Source: a virus. From it: 64,000 nucleotides of DNA. The notes under the pieces were generated by a model. It was given only the letters and a program-made list of their open reading frames with translations, was not told the origin of the DNA and ran no database searches. The stretch is from positions 38,002 through 102,001 of IMG/VR virus record IMGVR_UViG_3300026078_000022; one strand, given 5' to 3'. Position numbers and translations under genes: made by a program. Each line of letters opens with the position of its first letter. Within the stretch, counting starts at the first letter, position 1. Below, piece after piece: positions 1,124 to 64,000 of this stretch.

Positions 1124-4100
1124 TATTTTTTCAGGTTTCCAGAGCTAGTAAATAAAAAGTAAGCCCCTTTAAATTCATTGTATTGATTTAGGTTATTCAA
1201 ATCCATTATAAACCGGCAAACAAAGTATAACCCGATATTTCTATTGCCGTCCAGCAACATACTTCTGAATAATTCATCCGGTGATATGGGAGGATAACTA
1301 TTTGCATTTCTTAAAACGGATGCAAAAAATAAGTTCTCTTTCTTCTTAAATTGATTCAGAGACAGCCACGAATAAGAGTTATAAAAATTTGAATAAATAA
1401 GGTCTAGCCAGAAACAATAAGGATTACTATCTATTGAAATGGATTGTAGGATTTTATTGGTATCGGGGGCCTTGTTGAGAACTCCAATAAAATTAGGAAT
1501 TACCTGCTGTCCATAATATTCGGCAAAACTTTCACTGCCTGAATTGTGATAATAAGGAGAGCCCCCCGCAAAAGAAACCAGTTGAACGCCTGATTTATCC
1601 CCTTTTAATACCGCGTACGATTCCGGGACAAAGCCGACTGATCTTACCCATCTACCCGTAGGAATATTATATACAATGGTTTCCTGATGTTTTAAATCCC
1701 AATTGAACCGATTGTTTATGTATGAAGTTAGATCATTTGAATTGTTTCGACGGGGCCGGAAAGAAACATATACATTATTCCTATCCATATCAATGCCTGT
1801 CATTACATCGAATCTCTTTTCTTTTTCTACGCTTTTATTCCACGACTTTATAAACTTAGTTTTTGATATAAAATATGATTTCACATACCCTTGCGCCCCA
1901 CTTTCTGCATTAAATTCTGTAATGTCAATAGCACTTCTGTAATCACAAAGTATAAATGCTTCGTTCATTCCATCGTACCAAAACGCATATTTATCGTAAA
2001 ACAAAACACTTCCTGTATCCTCAAAAGATACTCCATATTCGCTACCTAATTTTTGATGTGGCTCACTGAGTTTATCATCCAGATTAGCCACTTGTACCCC
2101 TTCAGCATTAGCGAATATGTATTGAAAATTAAAGTTCGTGGTGAACCAATTATTTTCACAAAGGAACATTACAATACTTCCTTGCGTTTTCATGGCTACT
2201 ATACCACCCCATGAGAAACTTTCTTTGAATTGCTTTCTGTTTTCTGACCGGAATATACCTAATCCATTTAAAGCACCATCCGATATGAAATTATCCCCCT
2301 TTATCACATCTAGTGGATACCATTGTTGCCGGGCATTATCATTTTTAACGTTTTGACGGCCACAACTACTACAGTTAGCGCCCCAATTGTCGCTTATGTT
2401 AGCGCTTTCAAAAGGATGATTAAAAAATTCTAATCCCACATTGGGAATAGGAATGTTTCTTGTCAGGAAGTAAGTATCCCAAAATTCCAGATCAATGGTA
2501 GCCGGGAAATTGTATAAGGGAACATTATTAACGTCATAGCCGGTAAATATGGCTATCCGGTTATTAATGATCGGCCAAAAACCTGCTACTTCACAATAAG
2601 GTATAGTTTCTGATTGTTGTGTAGGTGTGTATATTTCTATCCAAAAACCATTTTTATTGAATACTTTATTAAGTCGGAGATCATATCTGACAATAAGCGT
2701 AATTGATTTATTGTTGGCAATTGTTGCTTGTGAAGGATTCTCCACCGCCGTAGTGGGTAATATACCTGCATTAACGGCTGCCTGATTATAATTAGTACCT
2801 AAAATCTGAACATCAATCGGATCTCCATTAGTGGATACATCCAATAAATGACCATCTCCATCGTCCAAAATCCTTAACCTGTCTCCTGTTACAAATTGGT
2901 AATTTGATAAGGTTGTGAAGTTTCGAGCAATATTATAATTGTAAAGCGAATCAATGGCTATAGAGCAAAACACTGCCGTATTAGGATCATTTACCACATT
3001 TCCACTGCTATCAATAAAACTGATGCTATCGCCAACCCATTGTATATATTTTAAGACACTCAAATTTTTAGATACAGAAAAAGTAAACCATTTAATGTCT
3101 GGGTATGCTGAAAAATTCAGTGCATTAGAAATTACCGATTTAAAAAACGTAGCTTTAACATCATCCCTTTCAAGGAAAGACGGCACAGCAACATCTTTAA
3201 TCACATTAACGAACATTAATCGGCCAGCCAAATCAGCGCCATAGCATCCTACCGAATATTTTCCTCCTTCTTTTAATGAAGTTTGTGATGAAGTTTGAAT
3301 ATTTATTGATAAGTTAATTGGAATAGGATAATCCCTTATCTGACAATTAACGCATGGCGATAATGATTCATCAAATAAAAATAACGGGATGTTACCGCAG
3401 TTGGATATTGTTATAATATATGAACCACCTGCATTTATATAAATGTTGTTTACTCTATTACCTTGCTGTCCATTATGCACAATTAACGTGAATGTGCCAT
3501 CTTGCTTACTGCTTACTGTACCACCACCAACTATAGAAACGGATATACCTGAGTAATCAATTGTGCCATCCAAATTAGTTATCTTACCTGATACTACTAT
3601 CCGGTTACAATCTCCTACTACTCCATTATTGTAATCAGTCAGATATGCCGGTGAATTTTGACACCATCCTATTCCTGATCTGCTAGTTACAATGGTAAAG
3701 TCAATTGGATAGGCACAGTTTAATTTAGTCTGATTAAACTCAATATCTACAATATCTGCATTGGACGCTTTTGTATACGCAAAATAAAACCCATTTTTGT
3801 CCGTAACCATCCCTCCATTATCTAAATCACCATGATTCATTGTATATGCAAACGATTCTATAGGTATAGGATCATTTACTGATTCAAAAAAATAGCCCTC
3901 TATAAACCTAAATTTTTTATTTCCTTGTTGCGTTATATAAGGACAATAAACATAGAACAAATCACTTCCGTTCCCCCATACATCTACGTCTGCGCCTGTA
4001 CAATCAATCTCCATTTCTTTTGAATAGGTAACTACTCCTGTATTGGGTACGATAGATGTATTATTGCCTGATATTATCGTTGTTGACCTTGAATTAGCCA

Positions 4101-52431: not shown

Positions 52432-53039
52432 TATTTATTGTATTTTAATGAGTTACGACATATGCAGGTCTGCCTATTTTATACCGCTGTTAGCATCAGC
52501 CCTTTAGCACAGTTATTTAATCATCGAACCCATAACTAACACGTAACATAATGGAATTTATCACTTTACGAATAACAACAGTACGACCATTATCTAGTGT
52601 AAGTGTATCTCCGATATGATATTGTTGCGTTTGTTTCATAAGTCAAAGATAATCCCCTCCCCATAATATTCCAAATAAATTCCAACAAATATTTCAAATA
52701 TACCCAATACCCCTGATACATATACCATAACACATTGATCCACAATAAAACCAATGAACTAACCAGCAATACACCATTACACCACAACCCACACAATGCC
52801 CCTGTAGCGCAATAGGAAGCCAATAGCGCCCCAATCCCACACAGAAAGGCCCATTGCCCCATCAACGCAGACAATCGCAGCTAACAAACTCACACCCGGG
52901 CAAAAATCAAAAGCAATTGACAACGGTATATCACAACAATAATCAGCGCAGCAAACCATAACATAACTATATGATAATCAATTAATGGATTCCTTTTCCC
53001 GGAAATTTCAGGCTAGGCTATAGTTTTTCGATGCCCATG

Positions 53040-53276
53040 CCGCCGCGCCGGGCCTGCAAAAACCCGTAGGGTGTGCAAAGGCTACACGAACAGCAGGAAA
53101 GGAATATCCTGTGAGGACGCACGTAGGTTTAAGCGGTCGTCCTATGCATGCGAAATAGCATGCGCGATCTACGCTTGGGGGTAAATGAGAGTAAGGGTTC
53201 TGTTTTTGGGTTGATTGGCCCGGGTGGGGGTTCGGGTTGTTGGCTGGTCTGAGTTTTGGAATTGGGCGGCGCGGCG
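53040..53276. other. GC-rich multi-hairpin (cloverleaf) element inside a strand-asymmetric non-coding region
   Basis: 10-bp inverted repeat 53041-50/53267-76; CGTAG/CTACG closes four hairpins; AC-rich left arm, GT-rich right arm. Confidence 0.6.
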
Positions 53277-53428
53277 ATTTTGCTTTCTTTCTGTTTAAGG
53301 GATTCCCTTGTTGGGAAAATTACCCGGGTGAAAATATTTTTTTAATCCCCTTTGAGTTGCCGGATCTGGTGGAATAGGGGTAGGGTGTAAGAGGGTTATA
53401 GTTGGGGGTAATTGTGTAAATAGTGCAA

Positions 53429-53758
53429 TTATTTATTGGATCGAAGAAAGCGAAGATATTCCAACAATTGTTGCTCTTCTTTCTGGGTGAGTTTTGTTTT
53501 CGCATTTATTGTTTTTAAAATACCAATTTTTGCTTTTGGATCTTCGATTACAATACCAGCAGCAATAAGCAATGTCTCCATTTCTATTTTATATAAATGA
53601 GATAATTTATAAAGCACATCCGCTGATGGCTTTTTTATCTTATCGTTTTCGAGTTGACTTAAATAAGCGTTTGATATACCAACCGCTTCTTCAACCTGTC
53701 GTAATGTTAATGATATTAACTCCCTTGATTCTTTAAGTGTTTGCCCTAATGTTTTCAT
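53429..53758 (-). CDS. XRE-family HTH repressor
   Basis: LK..RE...LTLRQV...GISNAYLSQLENDKIKKPS..VLYKL. Confidence 0.9.
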   Translation of the reverse strand: MKTLGQTLKESRELISLTLRQVEEAVGISNAYLSQLENDKIKKPSADVLYKLSHLYKIEMETLLIAAGIVIEDPKAKIGILKTINAKTKLTQKEEQQLLEYLRFLRSNK

Positions 53759-53903
53759 GTTTTATGAATTTAATTTTGCTAAATTAATCAATTTGTATTT
53801 ATCTTTAGGGTTCATTAATTAACAATTAAAAACTTTTCAATGACTACATTAAAAATGAAGTTGGGGCTTTCTTTAAAACAATTATTAAAAAAACTTATCA
53901 ATT

Positions 53904-54128
53904 ATGGATTATGTATGCGTTCATGCGCGATTTTTATTTTTCGATTGGAAATCTCATTATACAGTAGAGTATAGTTATGGTATTGGCAAATGGTTTGTGT
54001 TTGAAGATGAAAAAACTACTGATGCCCTATATGTTAGTAAGGAAATAAAGCCATCAAAAAGTAAATCCCCTAATAGGGAGGAAGCTAAAGTTATATTAAA
54101 AGAATATTTTAGCAGTGTTATTGTTTAA
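53904..54128 (+). CDS. Hypothetical protein
   Basis: Preceded by the repeated 18-nt leader. Confidence 0.5.
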   Translation: MDYVCVHARFLFFDWKSHYTVEYSYGIGKWFVFEDEKTTDALYVSKEIKPSKSKSPNREEAKVILKEYFSSVIV

Positions 54129-54149
54129 AACATCAAAAACTTATCAATT

Positions 54150-54401
54150 ATGACAAACAAAGAATTGCAATTGTATTTAGCCAAATACCCGGATGATATG
54201 CCTCTGAGGTGGCGCTGCGAAACCACAACTGAAAGTGGGCATTATGAAATGGAAGATTTCGATGAAGACAAAATACTTCATACTTCAGAAACCGCATATG
54301 TTGATATAGATGCTCCTGAAGATGAATGGGACACCGAAGTTGGTAAAATCGAACTTGGCAGCGGCCAGCAATATTTATTATTTAATCCATTAATAGTTTG
54401 A
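54150..54401 (+). CDS. Hypothetical acidic protein
   Basis: MTNKELQLYLAKYPDDMP. Confidence 0.6.
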   Translation: MTNKELQLYLAKYPDDMPLRWRCETTTESGHYEMEDFDEDKILHTSETAYVDIDAPEDEWDTEVGKIELGSGQQYLLFNPLIV

Positions 54402-54407
54402 CAGTTT

Positions 54408-54476
54408 CCTGATAAGTTCTGTCGATAAGCCCTGATTAGAATTGCATCAGCAGTATCGGGGCTTTTTTATGTCAGG
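54408..54476 (+). terminator. Intrinsic terminator hairpin
   Basis: AAGCCCTGAT...ATCGGGGCTT followed by a T-tract, between convergent genes. Confidence 0.6.
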
Positions 54477-54551
54477 TAGTGTGATTTAAGTCATATCACA
54501 CAAGGTAGGGGGTTGTATTGTTTGCGTTTTCTTGATTTCAGGAAAACGTTC

Positions 54552-54755
54552 TTAATTCATATTTATATCCCATTCGACGGCAACCCAATCTTCGCCCTCT
54601 AAAATAAAGCCCATTTTACCTAATCGGTCATCTGGTATAGCTGCTTTCATTTTAGTTACGCGACCGTCAATAGGATCTACTTCCATAACAATGCACTCCA
54701 TATTTGCGAAGTCTCCGGTGCCTTCAAGTTTTATAATGTCACCCGGTTGTCTCAT
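54552..54755 (-). CDS. Hypothetical protein
   Basis: Protein-like 67-aa frame. Confidence 0.5.
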   Translation of the reverse strand: MRQPGDIIKLEGTGDFANMECIVMEVDPIDGRVTKMKAAIPDDRLGKMGFILEGEDWVAVEWDINMN

Positions 54756-55184
54756 AGACCAAATTTAGTATATTCGTATCTAATGCAAGGACTGGCAAAG
54801 CAGTCTATAAATATCATGTTTACATCATTCCTTTTTGAAAGGCTTACACATTACCGCCAATTTTATTCTACAGAGGCCGAATTTATCCAACACTTAATGA
54901 GCGGGGAAGTAAAGATATCAATTCCTGATCTTATTAAATTTCAAAGCGAGTATGAAAATAAGCGGCCATCTCTGCCATCCCGCTTTCAGGTAGGTGATAA
55001 GGTGATATTTGAAGATCGCCCTGATGATCATGATATACCTTACATCGGTTTGCCAGCCGAAATATTAGCTGTTCATTTTTATTCTGGCAAGGTCAAGTAT
55101 GATGTAGACCTTATATTTGCTGAAGGCAAAAGAACTAGGATTTATAATGTAGACTCTATCGTGATTGTAGATTTCGATAAATAA
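54747..55184 (+). CDS. Hypothetical protein with SH3-like C-terminus
   Basis: LPSRFQVGDKV...KVKYD...TRIYNVDS; true start probably later (54783 or 54816). Confidence 0.6.
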   Translation: MSHRPNLVYSYLMQGLAKQSINIMFTSFLFERLTHYRQFYSTEAEFIQHLMSGEVKISIPDLIKFQSEYENKRPSLPSRFQVGDKVIFEDRPDDHDIPYIGLPAEILAVHFYSGKVKYDVDLIFAEGKRTRIYNVDSIVIVDFDK

Positions 55185-55203
55185 GTCAGAGAAACAATTC
55201 GAT

Positions 55204-55250
55204 AAGCCGGGGCAGATACCTACTACTATCTGCTACCGGCTTTCTTGTTT
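55204..55250 (+). terminator. Intrinsic terminator
   Basis: AAGCCGG.GCAGATA...TATCTGC..CCGGCTT followed by a T-rich tail. Confidence 0.7.
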
Positions 55251-55329
55251 TATATCCGTGGGAGTGGGTATTTATTTAATTGTGTGAAAAATATATTTGT
55301 TTATATGAATTGTGTGTTTATATTTGCTT

Positions 55330-55563
55330 ATGAAGATAGCGAAGAAAATACCAATACCGGTTAACGTTGGTTCAGGACGGCCACGGAAAAAATATAGATT
55401 TGATTTATTAAATGAGGTTGGTGATAGTTTCTTCATAGAAGGCGTTGAAGCCAAAAATAGTGTGTACAGCAATCTTAATTCTTATAATAAGAAAAGTAAA
55501 CACCCAATAAAAATAACTATCCGTACTGAAGAAACCGGCATTCGAATTTGGCGAATTAAATAA
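55330..55563 (+). CDS. Small DNA-binding protein (paralog of 52204-52431), probably leaderless
   Basis: KIPIP...KYRF...EVGDSF...IRIWRI; TATATTTG box at 55319-55326 just before the ATG. Confidence 0.65.
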   Translation: MKIAKKIPIPVNVGSGRPRKKYRFDLLNEVGDSFFIEGVEAKNSVYSNLNSYNKKSKHPIKITIRTEETGIRIWRIK

Positions 55564-55667
55564 TACTCGTATGTTGCTATTAATAATAGTTGTTACATGT
55601 TTATTTATTGGATATGCAATTGGGGTTGTCGATGAAAAAGATAGGATACAAAATAAAACAAATAACA

Positions 55668-55889
55668 ATGCTTAGTTTAATTGATGTATTACGAAGTAAT
55701 GGTGGTGTTATTGAAAATGGCGCTGTTATGATTACATGTAAAGACATGGATGTAGCAGCGAGGTTATATGTACATAATTGTGTCGTTAAAGAATTAGAAT
55801 CATTACTTGAAATCAATTCAACACAAGCATACTGGCCTGCTATAATTAAACAAAGGATTAATCAATTAAAAGGTAATAACAATGGCTGA
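55668..55889 (+). CDS. Hypothetical protein
   Basis: Start taken at MLSLID after an A-rich leader. Confidence 0.5.
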   Translation: MLSLIDVLRSNGGVIENGAVMITCKDMDVAARLYVHNCVVKELESLLEINSTQAYWPAIIKQRINQLKGNNNG

Positions 55890-56157
55890 TAGAGATGCGA
55901 TATTAGAAAAAGGAACAAAAGATTACGCGCCAATTTTATATATTATTGAACAATATAAAAAAGGTAATTGTCCATTAAGTTCAGTAGAATCAGCCATTAA
56001 AAATGCATTGGACGAGTACATGCGCTTAACCTGTTTAGAACTCTTAGAATATATGGGTAATAATGAAGTTGAATGTATGAAAACCCGTGTAGGGTTAAGA
56101 TTTTATCATAACGGTCTTTATTTAACCGCAGAAGAACTATTTGAAAACTTTCTATAA
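55882..56157 (+). CDS. Hypothetical protein
   Basis: Coupled ORF. Confidence 0.55.
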   Translation: MADRDAILEKGTKDYAPILYIIEQYKKGNCPLSSVESAIKNALDEYMRLTCLELLEYMGNNEVECMKTRVGLRFYHNGLYLTAEELFENFL

Positions 56158-56165
56158 TAAATAAC

Positions 56166-56366
56166 ATGGTAAACGAATATTACTATTTGAATGAATTAGA
56201 AATCAAAATGGAAGAATTTTTAGAGACTGAAACATGTAGCGATAATGATTTAGGGTGGATTGCTCCAATGACAAAACGAAGAATGGCAGAAGCTGCTTTC
56301 GCTGTATTAAAGAATGCTCAAGAATTAAATATTTATCTTGAACGTGAAGGTGTATTAAATTTATAA
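56166..56366 (+). CDS. Hypothetical protein
   Basis: Coupled ORF. Confidence 0.55.
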   Translation: MVNEYYYLNELEIKMEEFLETETCSDNDLGWIAPMTKRRMAEAAFAVLKNAQELNIYLEREGVLNL

Positions 56367-56459
56367 GGTATTTATAAACTTTCTCACTCACAATCAGTAC
56401 GGGAATCTCAGTCGGGATTATTTTTAGTCCCGGCCTTATTTTAAACAAGTTCTTTTAAA

Positions 56460-56533
56460 TAGCTCGGGAGCGCATTTCCCCGACAAGGTGAGCGGTGAAG
56501 AAATTCATGCCACAGACCGAAAGGAAGATGCTA
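56460..56533 (+). ncRNA. Structured RNA unit A
   Basis: TAGC/GCTA closing stem; TCGGG/CCCGA hairpin; two GAAA-tetraloop hairpins (GTGAA-GAAA-TTCAT, CC-GAAA-GG). Confidence 0.45.
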
Positions 56534-56660
56534 AATGAACAGAAACATTTATGAGTGATCATATGATGCGGGTAGCCAGCCTGTTATTGGGACGCGAGTA
56601 GGATGTAATTTGGTAACTGGCCTACGAAATTACGACCGGCGATTCTCTTTTCTGTTCATT
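56534..56660 (+). ncRNA. Structured RNA unit B
   Basis: 12-bp closing stem AATGAACAGAAA/TTTCTGTTCATT; GTAATTT/AAATTAC hairpin with crossing GCCAG/CTGGC complementarity. Confidence 0.55.
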
Positions 56661-56668
56661 CATATATT

Positions 56669-56778
56669 TCACCTGCATTGTGAGGCGTAAGCCAATAATC
56701 ATAGGGATAACCGTGAAAGATAACTGATCACTATTATTGTAACGGAAGGTATAGGGTTCGAACCCCTTGCGGGTGGCA
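56669..56778 (+). ncRNA. tRNA-like RNA with enlarged anticodon arm (unit C)
   Basis: Acceptor CACCTGC/GCGGGTG; T-arm AGGG-TTCGAAC-CCCT; GGC-GTAA-GCC; long CAATAAT/ATTATTG arm; no assignable anticodon. Confidence 0.6.
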
Positions 56779-56797
56779 AACTAAGTTCTTTTAAATA

Positions 56798-56923
56798 TGT
56801 AAGGCATGAGCAGCAGGGACTAACCTGACAAGCTGGCCTACAAAAGCAGTAGACACAGAAGGAAGTAATCTAGTGTAAAGAGATGTGTTAAGTTACTTTA
56901 AGCACGCCATCTGCGGTCGCTGT
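56798..56923 (+). ncRNA. Structured RNA units D and E
   Basis: D: TGTAAGGC/GCCTACA and CAGC/GCTG stems; E: two hairpins with loops AAGTAA (56863-68) and TTACTT (56893-98). Confidence 0.45.
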
Positions 56924-56955
56924 ACAAACAAGTTCTTTATTTATATAGATGATAT

Positions 56956-57125
56956 TGTTGATGAATGTGGTGGAATAGACAGGATGTTATGTAAAGTAAC
57001 TCAATAGTAAACACGATGAGCGGTCAAATACGTTGAAAAGCGTTTCCGGTAGCTCATGCCTAAATGCCGGAAAGATGAAAAAGGCTTGCAGGGTGACGCA
57101 TGGAAATCCCTGCCATTCATCAACA
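56956..57125 (+). ncRNA. tRNA-Leu-like scaffold with insertions in all loops (unit F)
   Basis: Acceptor extended to 12 bp; TG-GTGGAAT...GTAAACACG D-arm; ATGAGC/GCTCAT; GCCT/AGGC variable arm; GCAGGG/CCCTGC T-stem. Confidence 0.65.
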
Positions 57126-57135
57126 TACTTTATTT

Positions 57136-57235
57136 ATTACTACGGGGGGAGCAACATAACGTCAAGTAATTGGGACTCTGTAGCTGCATGAGTCTTAGGT
57201 GGTAATGCAGATTAATCGCCTCTCCCCTTAGTAAT
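57136..57235 (+). ncRNA. Structured RNA unit G
   Basis: ATTACTA/TAGTAAT and GGGGAG/CTCCCC closing stems; two hairpins with loops CTGCAT (57184-89) and ATGCAG (57205-10). Confidence 0.55.
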
Positions 57236-57262
57236 TGTTCTCATGTTTTATTCTACTGGTTT

Positions 57263-57306
57263 AAAAGAAGGGAGTGATTTATGTCTATTTATTTCTCCCT
57301 CTTTTT
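57263..57306 (+). terminator. Terminator-like hairpin closing the ncRNA array
   Basis: AAAAGAAGGGAG...CTCCCTCTTTTT. Confidence 0.55.
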
Positions 57307-57353
57307 AACTTTCAAAATCATTTTCTTTAATCACTAATAAAACAATAAACAAA

Positions 57354-57569
57354 ATGAATTTCGATAACATCGGGTCAGCACTAATGTTGATATATGATGA
57401 ACTTAAAAATGATAAGGAATCAAAGGCATTAGTAAAAAAGATAGATAAGGCCGAAAGCGATAAGCAAATAAAAGATGGCATAGTTGCAGGTGTTAAGCGC
57501 TTACGTGAATTAGGTAAAAATGCATTAGCCGATGATATTGAAAAGAAAACAAAAGGATTTGCTTTTTAG
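57354..57569 (+). CDS. Hypothetical protein
   Basis: A-rich leader; helical 71 aa. Confidence 0.6.
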   Translation: MNFDNIGSALMLIYDELKNDKESKALVKKIDKAESDKQIKDGIVAGVKRLRELGKNALADDIEKKTKGFAF

Positions 57570-57639
57570 AATAACATAAGCATAGTAGATCAGCCTTGCA
57601 TAGTGAACCTGCAATTGGCTTTTATTTTTAAACTTTAAT

Positions 57640-57722
57640 GCCTGAAATGAAATCCGGGCGCTTCAAATGAGAATTAAACATATAGGTTTGAAGCGGTTCA
57701 CCCCTGATACTTTGTTTCAGGC
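57640..57722 (+). other. Long branched hairpin (ncRNA or terminator)
   Basis: GCCTGAAA/TTTCAGGC enclosing CGCTTCAAA/TTTGAAGCG, followed by a T-tract. Confidence 0.5.
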
Positions 57723-57732
57723 TTTTTAATTT

Positions 57733-58002
57733 ATGGAATTAACAGTTGGAATATTAAAGCAGATAATTAAAGACTTGCCAGATGATGTAATATTGGCAGA
57801 TTTAGGAATAGGGAATGATAAGTTTCATCCGTTTATTGGGGTTAAGAGATTGATGTTATTACAAGGCGACGGAAGTTGGAATGATCAGCAATTTTTAACT
57901 ATCAATAGCATGGGCAGTCATTATACAAAACAAGGCGAACAAAGCTCTTTATTCTATTTAGACAAGAATTGGGATTCTGAAACATTAAACAACGGAAAAT
58001 GA
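57733..58002 (+). CDS. Hypothetical protein
   Basis: LTVG.LK..IKDLPDD motif. Confidence 0.6.
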   Translation: MELTVGILKQIIKDLPDDVILADLGIGNDKFHPFIGVKRLMLLQGDGSWNDQQFLTINSMGSHYTKQGEQSSLFYLDKNWDSETLNNGK

Positions 58003-58403
58003 AAATAGACAGAACTAAGTATACGGCCCATTATGAAAATGGAGTAGTAGTTGCCCAATGGATAAGTGTAGAAATGGCACTTGATACTTCAAATGGCGAA
58101 AGCCCATTGGATGCGCTTGATAAATCTCAGGAATTAGTACAACAATGGTATAAATCAAAGAACCTACCATTTATGGAAGCCAACCCCCAGCCTCCCGGCC
58201 CACCACCCGTAATAAATGTAGATAGAACACCCGAAGATATAAGAGTAGCCCAACTAATAAAGGATATATATGCGTGCGTTGTACTTGATGGGGAGCATGG
58301 ATTGTATTCGTATCGTACATTAGCAGAAACCACAAGTAAAGAAACTAAATCAGCCTTTGATATAATTGAGAAACGACTTAAAAAATACCCTAAACCTATA
58401 TGA
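57999..58403 (+). CDS. Hypothetical protein
   Basis: Coupled ORF. Confidence 0.6.
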   Translation: MKIDRTKYTAHYENGVVVAQWISVEMALDTSNGESPLDALDKSQELVQQWYKSKNLPFMEANPQPPGPPPVINVDRTPEDIRVAQLIKDIYACVVLDGEHGLYSYRTLAETTSKETKSAFDIIEKRLKKYPKPI

Positions 58404-58612
58404 CCACTGAAGAAAAACAAAAGATGGATGCCGCTTTTACAGAACTTACTAAACACGAATTAGCTTTCCTAAAAGAAGAAGGAATAGAACCAAATGAACA
58501 CGGCGCTTATGTGTTTATCAGTCAGTATGGGAATTGTCGTATCGCGCTAGATTTATTTCTTAGTTCTTATAAGAATTACCTTATCGAACATAGGATAGTA
58601 AAAGAGCTATAA
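58400..58612 (+). CDS. Hypothetical protein
   Basis: Coupled ORF. Confidence 0.55.
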   Translation: MTTEEKQKMDAAFTELTKHELAFLKEEGIEPNEHGAYVFISQYGNCRIALDLFLSSYKNYLIEHRIVKEL

Positions 58613-58643
58613 TTGAATGTCACAAAAAACCTAACACACTAGC

Positions 58644-58934
58644 ATGAAGAAGTATGGTTTTGTAGAACTTCCTACTATCGCGTATGATCCTAAAAATCAA
58701 GAACTCTTTAATAAACGGCCTGATGAGTGCGATTTGATAGAAGTAATTAGAAAAGTGATGATAACGTGTATAGAAAGCTATCATGAGGGTATCCCTGTAA
58801 GCGACTTCAGAGAGGATAATAAAATATGGACAGACGTTTTCATGAAAAGTGGGGATAGTTTTATAGTCAATATGCCATTAGCTGAGTTCGAAAAATTACT
58901 TATGAATCATTTGGAAGAATACAAAAACGAATAA
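58644..58934 (+). CDS. Hypothetical protein
   Basis: ORF in plus-strand cluster. Confidence 0.55.
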   Translation: MKKYGFVELPTIAYDPKNQELFNKRPDECDLIEVIRKVMITCIESYHEGIPVSDFREDNKIWTDVFMKSGDSFIVNMPLAEFEKLLMNHLEEYKNE

Positions 58935-58937
58935 CCA

Positions 58938-59183
58938 ATGACCCCCGTTGAAAAATCAGAAGAGTTATATCTGAAATACAAAGAAGCTCTAAACATTCAA
59001 AATGATATGCGTCCCGGCAAAAACCCATTCGCAAAACAATGCGCCATTATATGTGTAGAGCAAATAATACCATGTACATGGAAGCAGTCAACCTATAAAA
59101 AAGAAGGTAAAATTTGGGTAGATGAAATTACAACCACCGAATATTGGGAAGAAGTATTAACTATTTTAAAAACTCAAAAATAA
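58938..59183 (+). CDS. Hypothetical protein
   Basis: MTP.EK.EL...AKQCA.I.V..I...YW.EV pattern. Confidence 0.6.
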   Translation: MTPVEKSEELYLKYKEALNIQNDMRPGKNPFAKQCAIICVEQIIPCTWKQSTYKKEGKIWVDEITTTEYWEEVLTILKTQK

Positions 59184-59191
59184 ACAGTAAC

Positions 59192-59545
59192 ATGGCTATA
59201 AAATATAATCCCTTTAATGATAAAGGATGGTAGTACGGAGAAAGATTACCCGGACACGATGAATGGCATAAATACTTAGGCCCATGTCCAAATTGCGGAA
59301 CTGTTTGCTGGGATTATGGAGGCGGCTGGCGTTGTATGGCAATGTATTGTAGTAATAACGCAAGTAATCCGGAACCTAATGTTGGCCCGCGTCCTGACTG
59401 GTGGAATACAAACATTCTTGTCAAAAAAGATGGTGATTGTTGGTGTGCGCATTATAATGATTTTATCAACTTACAAGAAAGCGTCGCCGCTTTTGGCAAC
59501 ACACCAAAAGAAGCAGTCAATAATTTACAACTCATTGTAGACTGA
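59192..59545 (+). pseudogene. Zn-ribbon protein gene interrupted by an in-frame TAG
   Basis: MAIKYNPFNDKGW*YGERLPGHDEWHKYLGPCPNCG...C...C continues in frame into the 59336-59545 ORF. Confidence 0.6.
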
Positions 59546-59546
59546 T

Positions 59547-59918
59547 ATGGACTACGGAGATTATATAATACCCTTCGGTAAGCACAGGAATAAACCGCTA
59601 AAAGAACTACCCAAAGAATATCTTGTAGAACTATACCGACATGAGGACTTAATAACTAAGTGGCCCGAACTAAAGATTTACATAGAAGCATCCTATTGGG
59701 CTTTATTGCCAAACCTCCCCCTAAAATTTAAATACGAACCACTTCCTTGCGAAAAGAACTCATACGTAGATGAAGAAGCCGCCAAAAAAGCATTGAAACT
59801 AATAAAACAAGATAAGCGAGATCATAAGAAACCAAACCGATCCTACCAATGCGAAATATGTGGCTTCTGGCATTTAACATCGAAACCTTTAGCTGAAAAT
59901 AATTCACAATCGAACTAA
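59547..59918 (+). CDS. PFGKH-domain protein with C-terminal Zn finger
   Basis: IIPFGKHRNKPLKELPKEYL; YQCEICGFWHLTS. Confidence 0.65.
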   Translation: MDYGDYIIPFGKHRNKPLKELPKEYLVELYRHEDLITKWPELKIYIEASYWALLPNLPLKFKYEPLPCEKNSYVDEEAAKKALKLIKQDKRDHKKPNRSYQCEICGFWHLTSKPLAENNSQSN

Positions 59919-59919
59919 A

Positions 59920-60363
59920 ATGAGTATGGCACAAGAAAAAAAAGAACACATAGTAGATGATATATCTAAAATAAGAGTCAACCCGGATAATCATTCACAA
60001 TGGGATTTAGACCCACAAAACCGGTTTTATTTCGATAAATGCCTAGATGTACATAACGACATAGGCTTGTATTTGAGTTATAAGATAGGTGTCAAGTGTG
60101 ATTTAGATGGTAAATATGCTTCATTCCTAAACGACATCGGTATAATTCACCAATCAGACAATGGATGGTGGAGTATAGAAGCCGTTAATCCCAAAAACAT
60201 AGAAGCGTTTATATCCTATTATACAGATGACCCAGATAAATCGCCGTTCATTAATCAATATGATTCGGCTATCCAATTATACGACAAACTTAAAAAAGCA
60301 GCCTTCAGACATAAACATAAACTCGTAACCGATGCTGTAGAAGCATTAAACTCAATAAACTAA
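59920..60363 (+). CDS. Hypothetical protein
   Basis: Coupled ORF. Confidence 0.55.
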   Translation: MSMAQEKKEHIVDDISKIRVNPDNHSQWDLDPQNRFYFDKCLDVHNDIGLYLSYKIGVKCDLDGKYASFLNDIGIIHQSDNGWWSIEAVNPKNIEAFISYYTDDPDKSPFINQYDSAIQLYDKLKKAAFRHKHKLVTDAVEALNSIN

Positions 60364-60366
60364 AAC

Positions 60367-60858
60367 ATGAACAAATTCACAATCTACAATGAGGGAGACG
60401 ATACTGAAGTATTTGAACGCCCGGATGGGACAAGAGATCGTAACGAATTTACTTTCAGTGGGTTCGGCAATTTTATACACCCGTATCATAAAAAGCAATT
60501 GCAATGGGCTGTAGAAATGCTTAAGTCGGCAAATATTCATTTACAACTGAGAGAGGTGCCAACTGTTGATAATATAGGAGATAATGCAGACAGTGGCTCT
60601 TTTGAAGTAAAAGATTTATATCCTTTTGCAAAAGATAAAACAGATTGTAAGCGCCATCTTGTATTTATACAGGATAGAGAAATGGGCCGTGGTTGGGGAG
60701 TTTTAATAGAGATAAAACCAGAAAATACAGTAGAGATATTAACCCAAGAACATAAAGATACCGTTAGAGATCAAACCCTACTTGATGAAAAATGGTTGAA
60801 AAAACAAGGCGTTATATTAAAACGCAAAACGGTAAAAGACCTTAATAAACTCAAATAA
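60367..60858 (+). CDS. Hypothetical protein
   Basis: Coupled ORF. Confidence 0.55.
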   Translation: MNKFTIYNEGDDTEVFERPDGTRDRNEFTFSGFGNFIHPYHKKQLQWAVEMLKSANIHLQLREVPTVDNIGDNADSGSFEVKDLYPFAKDKTDCKRHLVFIQDREMGRGWGVLIEIKPENTVEILTQEHKDTVRDQTLLDEKWLKKQGVILKRKTVKDLNKLK

Positions 60859-60869
60859 ACTAAAATATT

Positions 60870-61103
60870 ATGCCCAAAACAAAAGAGATAGAAATAAGAT
60901 GCGATGAAGCAAGGATAAAGTCAAATCGTTATGGTTTCGTGACCGTAATAGCTGAAGACCCTAAAGTAGACGAACTCATATCCGGCATCCACAAGGATGA
61001 TATACTTGAATGGGTTACCGGCGAAGGATTCGATCCTGAAGAAATATTCTCAACCGATCAACTACATGCATGGGCTACCAAAAACGGGTATTCAAAAGAA
61101 TGA
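60870..61103 (+). CDS. Hypothetical protein
   Basis: Coupled ORF. Confidence 0.55.
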   Translation: MPKTKEIEIRCDEARIKSNRYGFVTVIAEDPKVDELISGIHKDDILEWVTGEGFDPEEIFSTDQLHAWATKNGYSKE

Positions 61104-61106
61104 TAT

Positions 61107-61340
61107 ATGAAATACAATACTAAAGATGTTACAGAGCCTAAGTCCGGCTCGATAGTTAGGAGAGGCAGCTATTGGATATGTGAAGACGGGCAGGAACAAA
61201 AAGCGTTATTCTTTGGTGATTCCCCTCAATGTAATAAAGACGTACGAATAGCCGAATGGGTATTGAAACATTCGTGGAAGAACCAAGAAAATTTGAAAGT
61301 AGTATACATAGATATCGCATATATACCTAATATTCAATAA
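61107..61340 (+). CDS. Hypothetical protein
   Basis: SPQCN motif. Confidence 0.55.
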   Translation: MKYNTKDVTEPKSGSIVRRGSYWICEDGQEQKALFFGDSPQCNKDVRIAEWVLKHSWKNQENLKVVYIDIAYIPNIQ

Positions 61341-61408
61341 ACTAAATCAACATGACAGAAGAAACTAAAGAACAAGTAACAGAAAGCAAACACTTAAACT
61401 AAAAAATA

Positions 61409-62080
61409 ATGGATATTCAAATATTAGTTCAAGAACAACTAAATAAGATAATAACCGAAGGGAAGCTGGCCGAAATAGTAAAGACTAAAGTTGAGAAAAC
61501 ATTGGAAGATGTAATTCAGGACATGGTAAGAATCTATTCTGATTTTGGTAAAGGGCTGAAGGAGGAAATAAATAAGGCTTTCAAGATAGATTTTGAGAAA
61601 ATATCGGCGGTAGATTATAATCACATTGTAGTGTCTATTGTTAAGGATCAGCTTGACAAACATCTTCTATCCTCAGTAAAAGACCCAATATCAGCGGCTA
61701 TTACTGAGTATTTAGGGCCATTGGAAAAGAAAGAATGGAAGTTGTCGGAAATAATAGAAAAGTTCAAGCAGGAGGAAATAGAAGATAAAAGTGATGGCGG
61801 TGAAATTACACTGCATGTAGAAAGAAGCGATTACGGGTCAACTCATATTTCCTTTGATAAGGAGGATGGAAAGAAAAGGTATGAATGCGAATATGAAATG
61901 TCGATAGATAGTAAAACTGGTAAGCCTTATAGCTTCGGTGCTGGACAGTACTGTCATCATAGAGGTGACTTAAGAACCGAATCATTGCATGGATCATTCG
62001 ATAAATTTTTCTTTCGCTTATACGCTCAACAAGTAACCATAATTATTGATGAATGTGAGACAGAATACTACTATGATTAA
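61409..62080 (+). CDS. Hypothetical phage protein
   Basis: YSDFGK..K, YN, KLSEI. Confidence 0.65.
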   Translation: MDIQILVQEQLNKIITEGKLAEIVKTKVEKTLEDVIQDMVRIYSDFGKGLKEEINKAFKIDFEKISAVDYNHIVVSIVKDQLDKHLLSSVKDPISAAITEYLGPLEKKEWKLSEIIEKFKQEEIEDKSDGGEITLHVERSDYGSTHISFDKEDGKKRYECEYEMSIDSKTGKPYSFGAGQYCHHRGDLRTESLHGSFDKFFFRLYAQQVTIIIDECETEYYYD

Positions 62081-62126
62081 CTCATTGAAATCCAAATAAA
62101 TACCCCCCTATATAAGTACTAAACAC

Positions 62127-62405
62127 ATGACTATAAACTGCAAAATTCCATCAAGGAATATCCCTGCTTTCAAAAAGTCTGCAAGGGAATTAGGCATAGA
62201 TCTATTTGTCGGTCAATTGGATGGGGAATATACCTCAATAGACATCATAATAGCAGATGTTTCATTGCTATTGAGCTTGGGTTTTATCGCCGGGTTAGAT
62301 ACCGCGTATAATTCTATGAAAAATCCAATGGCAGAAATTAGTCAAATACTTGATAATAAAATAGATAAGTTTAAAAAAGGTAAAGATGGAAGTAAATTGG
62401 GGTAA
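62127..62405 (+). CDS. Hypothetical protein
   Basis: Coupled ORF. Confidence 0.55.
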   Translation: MTINCKIPSRNIPAFKKSARELGIDLFVGQLDGEYTSIDIIIADVSLLLSLGFIAGLDTAYNSMKNPMAEISQILDNKIDKFKKGKDGSKLG

Positions 62406-63261
62406 TTTTAAGGTCAGATGTAGCGCAATTCAAAAAGTTCTATCAAATAGCCAATCGAATCCGGTATTAACCGAGCTTCAAGCAGTAAGAATGGTAGAAT
62501 TGGAGGATAAATTGCAAAAAAAAGGCAGTTTAACACCAAAACAACAGGAAGAACTTGCCGAATTGAAGGTAAAACAGGAAAATGGAAAGAAAATAATCCT
62601 GTCTGACACTTGCATAGAGTACTTAATGGTGGAATATGCATGGATCACAAGAGGAATGATACCGGTGGGCAAAGAATCTTTGGATTTATTGGGCATGAGG
62701 AAGGGCAAAAAAGTAGAAAAGGAAAGCATAGAACTACTTAGCCTTGTAGACGGCGCAGAATACAAGATACACAAGGACAGAATCTACAACGAATACATTT
62801 CCGGCGAAATAGACACCTACTTAGGAGAACACGTTTATGCCGCTACCAACATTTCGGATATGAAGAACGCCACCGATTACCCAACATTCCTGAAAAAGAT
62901 ACATACAGGGCTATCAGGGGGCCAAAAAGAGCAGGTTCAGGGATATTGCGATATTACCACGGCCCCGGTAGGATACATCGTTAATTCGCTTGTCAACTGC
63001 CCGGAAGAAGATATCATAGAAATGCAATGGACGGTAGCTCGGAAGATAGGATGCGCTACTACTGAATCCCCTGAATTTATCGAAGAATGGCCTAAATGGG
63101 AGCGTAGTATGAGATTCAACCATATGCCACCCCGCCAGCGAATATCAAAGATCAAAATAGATCCTTTTACCGCATTCGAGCGTCAACGACTTTACGACAA
63201 AGTAAAAATATGCCGCGATTGGCTAAATAATTTTCACGAAGAATATGAAAGACTGGCATAA
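62386..63261 (+). CDS. YqaJ/lambda-exonuclease-like PD-(D/E)XK nuclease
   Basis: KGKKVE..SI, ISGEID, DMKN, QVQGY. Confidence 0.75.
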   Translation: MEVNWGNFKVRCSAIQKVLSNSQSNPVLTELQAVRMVELEDKLQKKGSLTPKQQEELAELKVKQENGKKIILSDTCIEYLMVEYAWITRGMIPVGKESLDLLGMRKGKKVEKESIELLSLVDGAEYKIHKDRIYNEYISGEIDTYLGEHVYAATNISDMKNATDYPTFLKKIHTGLSGGQKEQVQGYCDITTAPVGYIVNSLVNCPEEDIIEMQWTVARKIGCATTESPEFIEEWPKWERSMRFNHMPPRQRISKIKIDPFTAFERQRLYDKVKICRDWLNNFHEEYERLA

Positions 63262-63296
63262 AATCAGTATTTTTGTTGCTGCAATTGTAGCAATTT

Positions 63297-63482
63297 ATGC
63301 AAGAAATACAACAAAAGGATTTGGATAAGCGCGTTTGGCCGAAGTTGCCTAGCTCTGTATATGAGGATTTATGCGAATTTGCAAACGAAGAAAGAAGAAC
63401 AGCTTCGGAAATGGCCGCTATTTTTATAGAAAGCGCCATTAAAGAACGTAAAAGGAAACGTAAAAATGCAAAAGAAGTATAG
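63297..63482 (+). CDS. Ribbon-helix-helix (Arc-like) regulator
   Basis: VWPKLPSSVYEDL..FA.EERRT.SE....IE. Confidence 0.6.
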   Translation: MQEIQQKDLDKRVWPKLPSSVYEDLCEFANEERRTASEMAAIFIESAIKERKRKRKNAKEV

Positions 63483-63921
63483 ATTAGATATCACCCCGGT
63501 TAGCGCAATCAGAACTACTCAGGGTGATTCCATATTCTTTAGAATACCCAGGGATAAACTTCGCCCTGCCGGGTTGAAAAGGTTGATCAGGATAGAACGT
63601 TACAACAAGTACAAGGTATCCCTTCTGGCATTAGCAAAACAACAAAGATTTACCCCAGCAGAGCAAGGGATGCACATAATTTTCTATATGCCTGTTCCTA
63701 CTTCTTGGCGTAAACATAAGAAAGAAAGCATGCATTTAATGCTGCATAACTCACGGCCCGATTGGGACAACCTCGCGAAAGGATTTTTCGATGGCTTGCT
63801 GGCAGAAGATAATAAAATAGCCGATGTCCGGGTTACAAAAAAATGGGTTAACCAAGAAACAGGCTACATAGAAGTATTATTAAATACTCCTGATCTACAT
63901 AGTTCAGATAATTTACTGTAG
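63466..63921 (+). CDS. rusA: RusA-family Holliday junction resolvase
   Basis: FYMPVP.SW, RPDWDNLAKGFFDGL..ED..I. Confidence 0.85.
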   Translation: MQKKYRLDITPVSAIRTTQGDSIFFRIPRDKLRPAGLKRLIRIERYNKYKVSLLALAKQQRFTPAEQGMHIIFYMPVPTSWRKHKKESMHLMLHNSRPDWDNLAKGFFDGLLAEDNKIADVRVTKKWVNQETGYIEVLLNTPDLHSSDNLL

Positions 63922-64000
63922 TCAGTGCAAGGCAGTTTGCAGCATAGTTGCATAAAGAGAGTATTATATAGATAAAATATGCAACATTGTTGTATTTATT

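Follow-up and report, generated by a model that had tools for sequence, protein, structure and literature searches.

The 64,000-nt stretch of DNA analysed here (the window) holds, at positions 56956-57125, a 170-nt sequence, unit 6, whose helices are laid out as in a tRNA and whose loops are all enlarged, raising the question of whether it is a tRNA gene, the remains of one or a gene for a different kind of RNA. An initial annotation had described it as a tRNA-Leu scaffold and had argued that the preservation of every stem, together with the remodelling of every loop, fits selection for a new function better than random decay. On sequence evidence, we find that argument reasonable but unproven.

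Genomic setting and parts of unit 6

The window corresponds to bases 38002-102001 of a 102,001-bp IMG/VR virus record, the ends of which form a perfect 11,478-bp (~11.5-kb) inverted terminal repeat (ITR). Unit 6 is located within the right ITR copy (window 52523-64000), and an identical second copy is present in the left ITR. The ITR doubles the RNA island in which unit 6 is situated and may be either a true genome-end structure or a fold-back assembly artefact. The phage terminase displays merely 21-27 % identity to the terminases of Cellulophaga, Flavobacterium and Maribacter phages, and neither the terminase nor the 66-aa protein encoded upstream has close relatives in IMG/VR. Given these terminase relatives and the presence of DNA of the stretch in rhizosphere and soil metagenomes, the likely source is an uncultured soil phage of Bacteroidota.

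The ITR genes around the island are small + strand ORFs that returned no Pfam or PHROG matches, while a 223-aa ITR protein matched two distant proviruses that carry neither tRNAs nor the unit 6 RNA. The genome contains no RtcB, CCA-adding enzyme, reverse transcriptase or TROVE gene, and ARAGORN called 0 tRNA genes both in the window and in the whole genome.

The island comprises ~860 nt without an ORF of more than 52 aa, and none of six ORF translations taken from it was found in a 15-billion-protein collection. Its 5′ boundary is a terminator-like hairpin (56411-56434) and its 3′ boundary a hairpin with a T-run (~57259-57309), between which folding gives consecutive closed units. Three island segments are headed, on the + strand, by the element AAAC(T)AAGTTCTTT with an A/T-rich tail (56443-56462, 56779-56800 and 56926-56948), a form that does not occur elsewhere in the genome, and a fourth, related spacer element, CTTTATTTAT, is located at 57128-57137. 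The AAAC(T)AAGTTCTTT signal may act as a promoter, as a boxA-like element or as a site of processing.

A neighbouring unit of the island, unit 3 (56669-56781), combines an acceptor-type helix of 7 bp (CACCTGC/GCGGGTG, one pair being G-T) with a T arm that carries TTCGAAC; it has no CCA, and its D and anticodon regions are non-canonical. Because no copy of its 21-mer GGTTCGAACCCCTTGCGGGTG was found among 185,579 species genomes, we rejected the possibility that unit 3 is a copied host tRNA end or attP core (an attP-type tRNA fragment). Near the inner end of the ITR, in a G/T-rich, ORF-poor stretch, the sequence GCCGGATcTGGTGGAATAGGGGTAGGGTG (53354-53390) looks like the acceptor 5′ strand and D arm of a tRNA-Leu.

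Unit 6 and the spacers on either side of it can be resolved into the following parts:

56935..56955, + strand: AT-rich spacer before unit 6, with CTTTATTTAT repeated at 57128-57137
56956..56960, + strand: 5′ arm of the terminal-helix extension, TGTTG, 5 bp with 57121-57125
56961..56967, + strand: acceptor-type 5′ strand, ATGAATG, 7 bp with 57114-57120, pair probabilities 0.95-1.0
56968..56976, + strand: TGGTGGAAT, equivalent to tRNA positions 8-16 (U8, G9, G10-G13, A14 A15 U16), an exact tRNA-Leu signature
56977..57010, + strand: enlarged D-loop with a bulged hairpin (56983-57002), loop GTAAA
57011..57015, + strand: ACACG, the D-stem 3′ strand (A22 C23 A24 C25) and G26, matching the tRNA-Leu consensus; D-stem pair probability 0.92
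57016..57057, + strand: anticodon-type arm, 6-bp stem ATGAGC (57016-21) / GCTCAT (57052-57), 30-nt loop
57043..57049, + strand: TTTCCGG, 5′ partner of a proposed loop-loop (kissing) helix
57058..57085, + strand: variable-arm-type hairpin, 4-bp stem GCCT (57058-61) / AGGC (57082-85), 20-nt purine-rich loop
57067..57073, + strand: CCGGAAA, 3′ partner of the proposed loop-loop helix
57088..57113, + strand: T-arm-type hairpin, 6-bp stem GCAGGG (57088-93) / CCCTGC (57108-13), 14-nt loop TGACGCATGGAAAT, pair probability 0.97
57114..57125, + strand: acceptor-type 3′ strand CATTCAT followed by CAACA; the discriminator position, C 57121, is paired, and there is no CCA
57126..57138, + strand: downstream spacer with the CTTTATTTAT repeat, end of the stretch common to a second contig (X5, described below)

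The 5′ spacer overlaps the third copy of the island signal, AAACAAGTTCTTT (56926-56938). The acceptor ATGAATG/CATTCAT with its extension TGTTG/CAACA and no CCA, as described in the initial annotation, is found at the two ends of unit 6, where the arms together constitute a perfect 12-bp inverted repeat (100 % complementary) with a pair probability near 1. The D-type stem, GTG(G) (56970-73) / (A)CAC (57011-14), encloses a 37-nt loop. Reading of the sequence also confirmed the anticodon stem with its 30-nt loop containing TCAAA, the variable arm and the T-stem with its 14-nt loop. All pairs in the five cloverleaf helices are Watson-Crick (31/31), while all four loops have been rebuilt and enlarged, in agreement with the earlier description of kept stems and remodelled loops. 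The only two G-U pairs of the model sit in insert hairpins and work on the + strand only.

Folded as + strand RNA, unit 6 has a z-score of -2.68, with 0/200 shuffles as stable; the reverse strand folds about equally (z = -2.76). The cloverleaf with its inner hairpins reaches -47.0 kcal/mol vs -47.7 for the unconstrained MFE (gap 0.7). To gauge the junction, we fixed the 7-bp acceptor and dinucleotide-shuffled the interior 20,000 times, and counted those shuffles in which a D stem from position 10 was followed, after 1 nt, by a second stem of 5 bp or more, then by a variable region and by a T stem, again of 5 bp or more, directly against the acceptor. Of the 20,000 shuffles, 1.6 % gave a cloverleaf of this kind, and 0.6 % gave one with at least 15 stem pairs, as observed. 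The stem spacing in unit 6 (2 nt / 1 nt / variable / 0 nt) is of the tRNA type.

Less can be said for the structures proposed within the loops. The hairpin that the initial annotation placed in the D insert is present, but its stability is no better than chance (z = -0.8), and the hairpin of the anticodon-type loop (ACGTT-GAAA-AGCGT, 57030-57043) is likewise no better than shuffles (z = -0.45). As for the suggested pseudoknot between the anticodon and variable loops, the complement exists, and the TTTCCGG/CCGGAAA duplex would contribute ~-8.7 kcal/mol. Nested folding assigns this helix 0.85 vs 0.15 for the anticodon-type stem and 0.09 for the variable-type stem, and the three can coexist solely as a loop-loop (kissing) arrangement. 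By loop shuffling, a 7-bp Watson-Crick complement has P = 0.008 for the anticodon/variable loop pair and P = 0.06 for any loop pair. We regard the predicted loop-loop helix as energetically plausible and, statistically, as no more than suggestive. A tRNA-like three-dimensional fold of the modelled RNA is not assured, because the T-loop and G18G19 elbow contacts that define the L-shape of a tRNA are absent.

Kinship with tRNA-Leu

The strongest letter-for-letter resemblance to a tRNA lies in the D arm, for which a tRNA-Leu-type frame had been claimed. We scanned the pattern TGGTGGAAT, 1-4 nt, GGTAGACAC in 185,579 species genomes (GTDB); among the 124 matches listed, an ARAGORN tRNA lies over 118, and every one of these (118/118) is a tRNA-Leu, with all isoacceptors represented. 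The specificity of the signature was gauged on 203 ARAGORN-called tRNAs at the loci of the matches listed. At these same loci, 7/8 Leu tRNAs outside the pattern differ from TGGTGGAAT at one position, and 77/77 non-Leu tRNAs differ from it at two to eight positions. These counts bear out the claim for TGGTGGAAT at tRNA positions 8-16. The 9-mer alone is insufficient, because three of its copies in the window (5 observed vs 0.67 expected) are Trp-Trp-Asn-type coding matches; its weight lies in where it stands, at position 8 of a cloverleaf that closes.

Unit 6 possesses the class II tRNA-Leu D-arm signature TGGYGGAAT...ACAC-G together with a long variable arm. When aligned with 45 tRNA-Leu genes, it has kept U8, G9, G10-G13, A14, A15, U16 and A22-C25-G26 (the G26 equivalent is at 57015), while TTCRAGT has been replaced by an unrelated 14-nt loop and the 7-nt anticodon loop by one of 30 nt. 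The 3′ end of the D-loop, which follows a 29-nt insert, reads AGTAA where tRNA-Leu has GGTAG, and G18G19 has therefore been lost. The tRNA junction core that is retained consists of the 7-bp acceptor-type helix, U8-G9, the D stem with G13-A22, A14, A15, G26, the long variable arm and a T-type stem that abuts the acceptor.

Set beside a bacterial class II tRNA-Leu, unit 6 is the same in positions 8-16 and 22-26, in the 3-bp D stem with G13-A22, in the junction spacing and in the long variable arm, and it holds a TCAAA remnant. In contrast to bacterial tRNA-Leu, it has no G18G19, T-loop, 7-nt anticodon loop, free discriminator or CCA, and its first pair is A1-U72 rather than G1-C72. On account of the D-arm signature, the junction spacing (0.6 % of shuffles), the long variable arm and the normal tRNA that neighbours the module in a second phage (see below), we consider it highly probable that unit 6 descends from a class II tRNA-Leu, and the scaffold recognised in the initial annotation is upheld.

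No match to the Rfam tRNA family (RF00005) was returned for unit 6 at E<=10. The same was true of a tRNA-Leu covariance model (R1) run with filters off, which recovers all the tRNAs of T4, T5 and L058, another phage contig. The T-type loop TGACGCATGGAAAT contains no TTCRANY; TCAAA (57024-28), in the anticodon-type loop, is out of register by 2 nt from the stem; and in place of a free discriminator and CCA 3′ end, position 73 (C) is paired in the 12-bp helix. No contiguous deletion restores a TTCRANY T-loop, a D-loop G18G19 or a 7-nt anticodon loop with U33 in register, so unit 6, to judge from its letters, cannot decode.

Other known RNA types fared no better, as Rfam families including GOLLD, ROOL, ribozymes and known tRNA mimics gave no match at E<=10. 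An antisense regulator of phage genes was rejected, the only matches being 12-13 nt long and at chance level, and a link to retrons, Y RNAs or RNA repair was ruled out by the absence of RT, TROVE, RtcB and CCA-adding enzyme.

Occurrence in other phages and metagenomes

A near-identical copy of unit 6 was found in Logan contig X5 (500 nt, depth 24, from a 2023 rhizosphere study), which equals 56936-57138 with one difference and diverges from the window on both flanks. The upstream flank of X5 (...TCGAATCCTATCTTCCCTACGA) has 20 letters identical to the T-loop, T-stem and acceptor 3′ strand of the tRNA called by ARAGORN at 12726-12802 of L058; X5 hence carries the 3′ half of a tRNA directly upstream of the unit 6 module. 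Downstream, 243 other letters replace the last island unit (~57136-57240; region 57139-57268), after which the terminator region (57269-57291) is again shared. Because the near-identical module in X5 stands behind a normal tRNA and is followed by a different sequence, unit 6 behaves as a discrete, portable cassette of a phage tRNA region, bounded by CTTTATTTAT spacers. The replacement of the last unit next to a shared terminator indicates, in turn, that neighbouring cassettes are swapped between related phages. The edges of the cassette common to X5 fall within the AAAC(T)AAGTTCTTT/CTTTATTTAT spacers, with the first common position (56936) inside the 5′ spacer.

A second contig, X4, from soil, is ~98 % identical over 56410-56713, the first units of the island, with seven differences. 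Two of these, 56466 G>A and 56481 C>T, turn a G-C of the hairpin TCGGG/CCCGA into A-T and are compensatory, as the two positions are the two sides of one pair. This is a small covariation for the first unit of the island, not for unit 6, and the RNAfold MFE omits the hairpin concerned.

The search for homologues, which the initial annotation had suggested as a check, thus gave a near-identical copy in X5; no diverged homologue of unit 6 was found in IMG/VR, one metagenome scan, the GTDB genomes or a cultured-phage collection. No match to the island was found by BLAST among 50,697 phage records. Pattern scans of IMG/VR gave no homologue with a T-arm 26-mer, 41 matches with an acceptor+D 16-mer, all of them coding ECGG-type chance matches, and chance matches only with an 18-mer for the spacer signal; the GTDB genome scans returned one chance match in a Runella coding region and two further chance matches. 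A covariance model of unit 6 (R2) gave no match in four related or retrieved virus records, and none in the tRNA regions of T5 and T4. The 71-aa protein encoded downstream has relatives in two further records, L003 and L014, neither of which has the island upstream. In L003 (IMGVR_UViG_3300024331_000037; 2637-3572), the place upstream of the 71-aa homologue is taken by two ORFs, of 107 and 226 aa, and by 255 nt free of ORFs, and ARAGORN called no tRNA in this region. None of the sequencing runs that contain the stretch is recorded as RNA.

Competing explanations and known tRNA-like RNAs

We lean towards the explanation that unit 6 encodes a small RNA, stable and non-decoding, that derives from a class II tRNA-Leu, and that it is carried as one cassette of a phage small-RNA island, the island being, by analogy, the counterpart of a phage tRNA region. 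That unit 6 is a real functional RNA seems more probable than not. The RNA would be made from the + strand together with the rest of the island and would be released at the AU-rich spacers, possibly aided by tRNA-processing enzymes. Its tRNA-like junction would serve as a nuclease-resistant folding frame, on which the new loops, tied to one another by TTTCCGG/CCGGAAA loop-loop pairing, would be presented to a partner from the host or the phage; the RNA would have no role in translation. We advance this mechanism (release at the spacers, the junction as a frame, the loops shown to a partner) tentatively, and it may well prove wrong.

A bolder version, which we consider rather unlikely, would make unit 6 one member of a widespread but uncatalogued group of phage RNAs for which the tRNA-Leu junction is a universal folding frame. 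In unit 6 itself, the D and T loops would also have become insertion sites, and a loop-loop helix would have taken the place of the lost elbow. The RNA would act early during infection on a host factor that recognises class II tRNAs, as a natural 'tRNA-scaffold' effector or anti-defence RNA.

Unit 6 could instead be a decoy or sponge, whose tRNA-Leu core and variable arm bind a class II-tRNA protein (LeuRS, a modification enzyme or a tRNA-targeting defence nuclease) and titrate or block it during infection. The part of unit 6 that is kept letter for letter is indeed the tRNA-Leu D-arm core, the ITR around the island is full of small early-type ORFs, and phage tRNA regions have been linked to the evasion of tRNA-targeting defences (PMC10264068, PMC13056530). 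However, the points by which anticodon nucleases and LeuRS usually recognise a tRNA (anticodon loop, T-loop, G18G19 and free A73-CCA) are all missing, and no candidate partner gene lies nearby; we find a decoy unlikely.

The tRNA ancestry of unit 6 also invites the view that it is a decaying tRNA-Leu pseudogene, the functionless relic of a once normal phage tRNA cluster. Consistent with this, canonical tRNAs are absent from the genome, whereas one stands next to the unit 6 module in a relative, the loops have no significant structure of their own, and conservation among diverged phages was not found in the collections scanned. Decay nevertheless appears improbable to us, since the four insertions (7-30 nt) are each confined to a loop and the 31 helix pairs contain zero mismatches, which is unlike neutral decay, and since the module is intact in a second phage while its neighbours have been replaced. 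Useless DNA is quickly lost from phage genomes, which is a further point against a pseudogene.

Unit 6 and the upstream segment have two nested stretches of 10 nt in perfect complement (56802-56811 / 57052-57061 and 56891-56900 / 56992-57001); the chance of even one is ~0.05. They raise the alternative that unit 6 forms, instead of an independent RNA, one domain of a structured transcript or leader ~860 nt long, in which alternative upstream pairings would control processing or read-through into the downstream genes. The position of the island between a terminator-like hairpin and a hairpin with a T-run would suit such a transcript. Yet the module in X5 stands without that upstream segment, unit 6 has its own 12-bp closing helix at near-certain pairing and the whole-island MFE does not use the long-range 10-nt pairs, leaving this explanation decidedly improbable. 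The first of the two complements consists of AGGC and ATGAGC fused, the letters of unit 6's own partners for GCTCAT and GCCT; the complements could represent an alternative fold, pairing in trans or the trace of a partial duplication.

That the inverted repeats came together by chance, or act only at the DNA level without any RNA role, is very improbable. Stems of 4-7 bp are common in 170 nt, and the reverse strand is about as stable as the + strand, but a 12-bp helix, exact tRNA spacing and a tRNA-Leu 9-mer are together very unlikely to arise by chance. The RNA-island context and the tRNA neighbour in X5 also speak against this reading, as do the extension of the shared module past the inverted repeat and the absence of a target-site duplication. 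Finally, we rejected as barely credible a functional tRNA-Leu(CAA) gene from whose transcript the four inserts are excised: it would account for TCAAA in the anticodon-type loop of a tRNA-Leu frame, but no contiguous deletion turns the loop remnants into canonical loops, RtcB, a CCA-adding enzyme and reverse transcriptase are all absent from the phage, and no bacterial system is known to cut out short inserts at several tRNA sites.

For the explanation that we favour, a non-decoding RNA on a tRNA-Leu frame, the closest comparisons are with the stable RNAs of phages T5 and T4, beyond whose annotations we found no literature on this RNA class. The T5 tRNA region (AY543070) encodes RNA1 and RNA2, annotated as 'tRNA-like stable RNA with unknown functions', RNA3 and four further stable RNAs. 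RNA1 (AY543070 30501-30644), inside the T5 tRNA cluster, resembles unit 6 in its tRNA-Leu-type D arm (TGCCGGAATTGGTAGACGG), 7-bp acceptor-type helix, enlarged anticodon arm and variable-arm hairpin and in being non-decoding, and the setting in a phage tRNA region or small-RNA island is common to both. It differs in retaining a canonical D-loop (GG; GGAATTGGTAGA) and the T-loop TTCAACT, neither of which is found in unit 6; its ends are not sealed in a 12-bp helix, whereas those of unit 6 are, and its inserts occupy two sites rather than four.

T4 rnaC and rnaD (species 1 and 2, AF158101 70908-71171) are, like unit 6, small stable RNAs beside phage tRNA genes; unlike unit 6, neither has a tRNA-Leu D arm, and the T arm and T-loop at the end of rnaC are canonical; no homology to unit 6 was detected. 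No sequence or profile similarity was detected between unit 6 and T5 RNA1/RNA2 or T4 rnaC (BLAST; model R2), and the T5/T4 stable RNAs score ~14 bits with the tRNA-Leu model, making them barely tRNA-like by profile.

YrlA and other bacterial Y RNAs are non-coding RNAs with a tRNA-like domain and occur in phages as well; YrlA has a Ro60-binding stem formed by its 5′ and 3′ ends, an acceptor-type stem that is closed as a hairpin, conserved D and T loops and a TROVE/Ro60 gene beside it (PMC4201824). A Y RNA identity for unit 6 was ruled out by topology, its ends forming the acceptor-type helix, by the missing TROVE gene and by the lack of an Rfam match. In engineered 'tRNA scaffold' RNAs, a recombinant RNA is embedded in a tRNA body for folding, processing and protection. 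These artificial constructs share the idea of a tRNA frame with unit 6, although their insert replaces the anticodon arm only and the D and T loops are kept.

The stable tRNA-like RNAs of the T4 and T5 tRNA clusters have been known for decades and still lack an assigned function. Unit 6 would take that design further, and in a very distant phage from soil whose host probably belongs to the Bacteroidota, in that only the tRNA-Leu junction core survives. As a single instance, it carries moderate weight. If functional, it would point to a general phage strategy in which new RNAs are built on a tRNA frame, and it may provide both natural designs for stable RNA scaffolds and a lead on the roles of the T5 and T4 RNAs.
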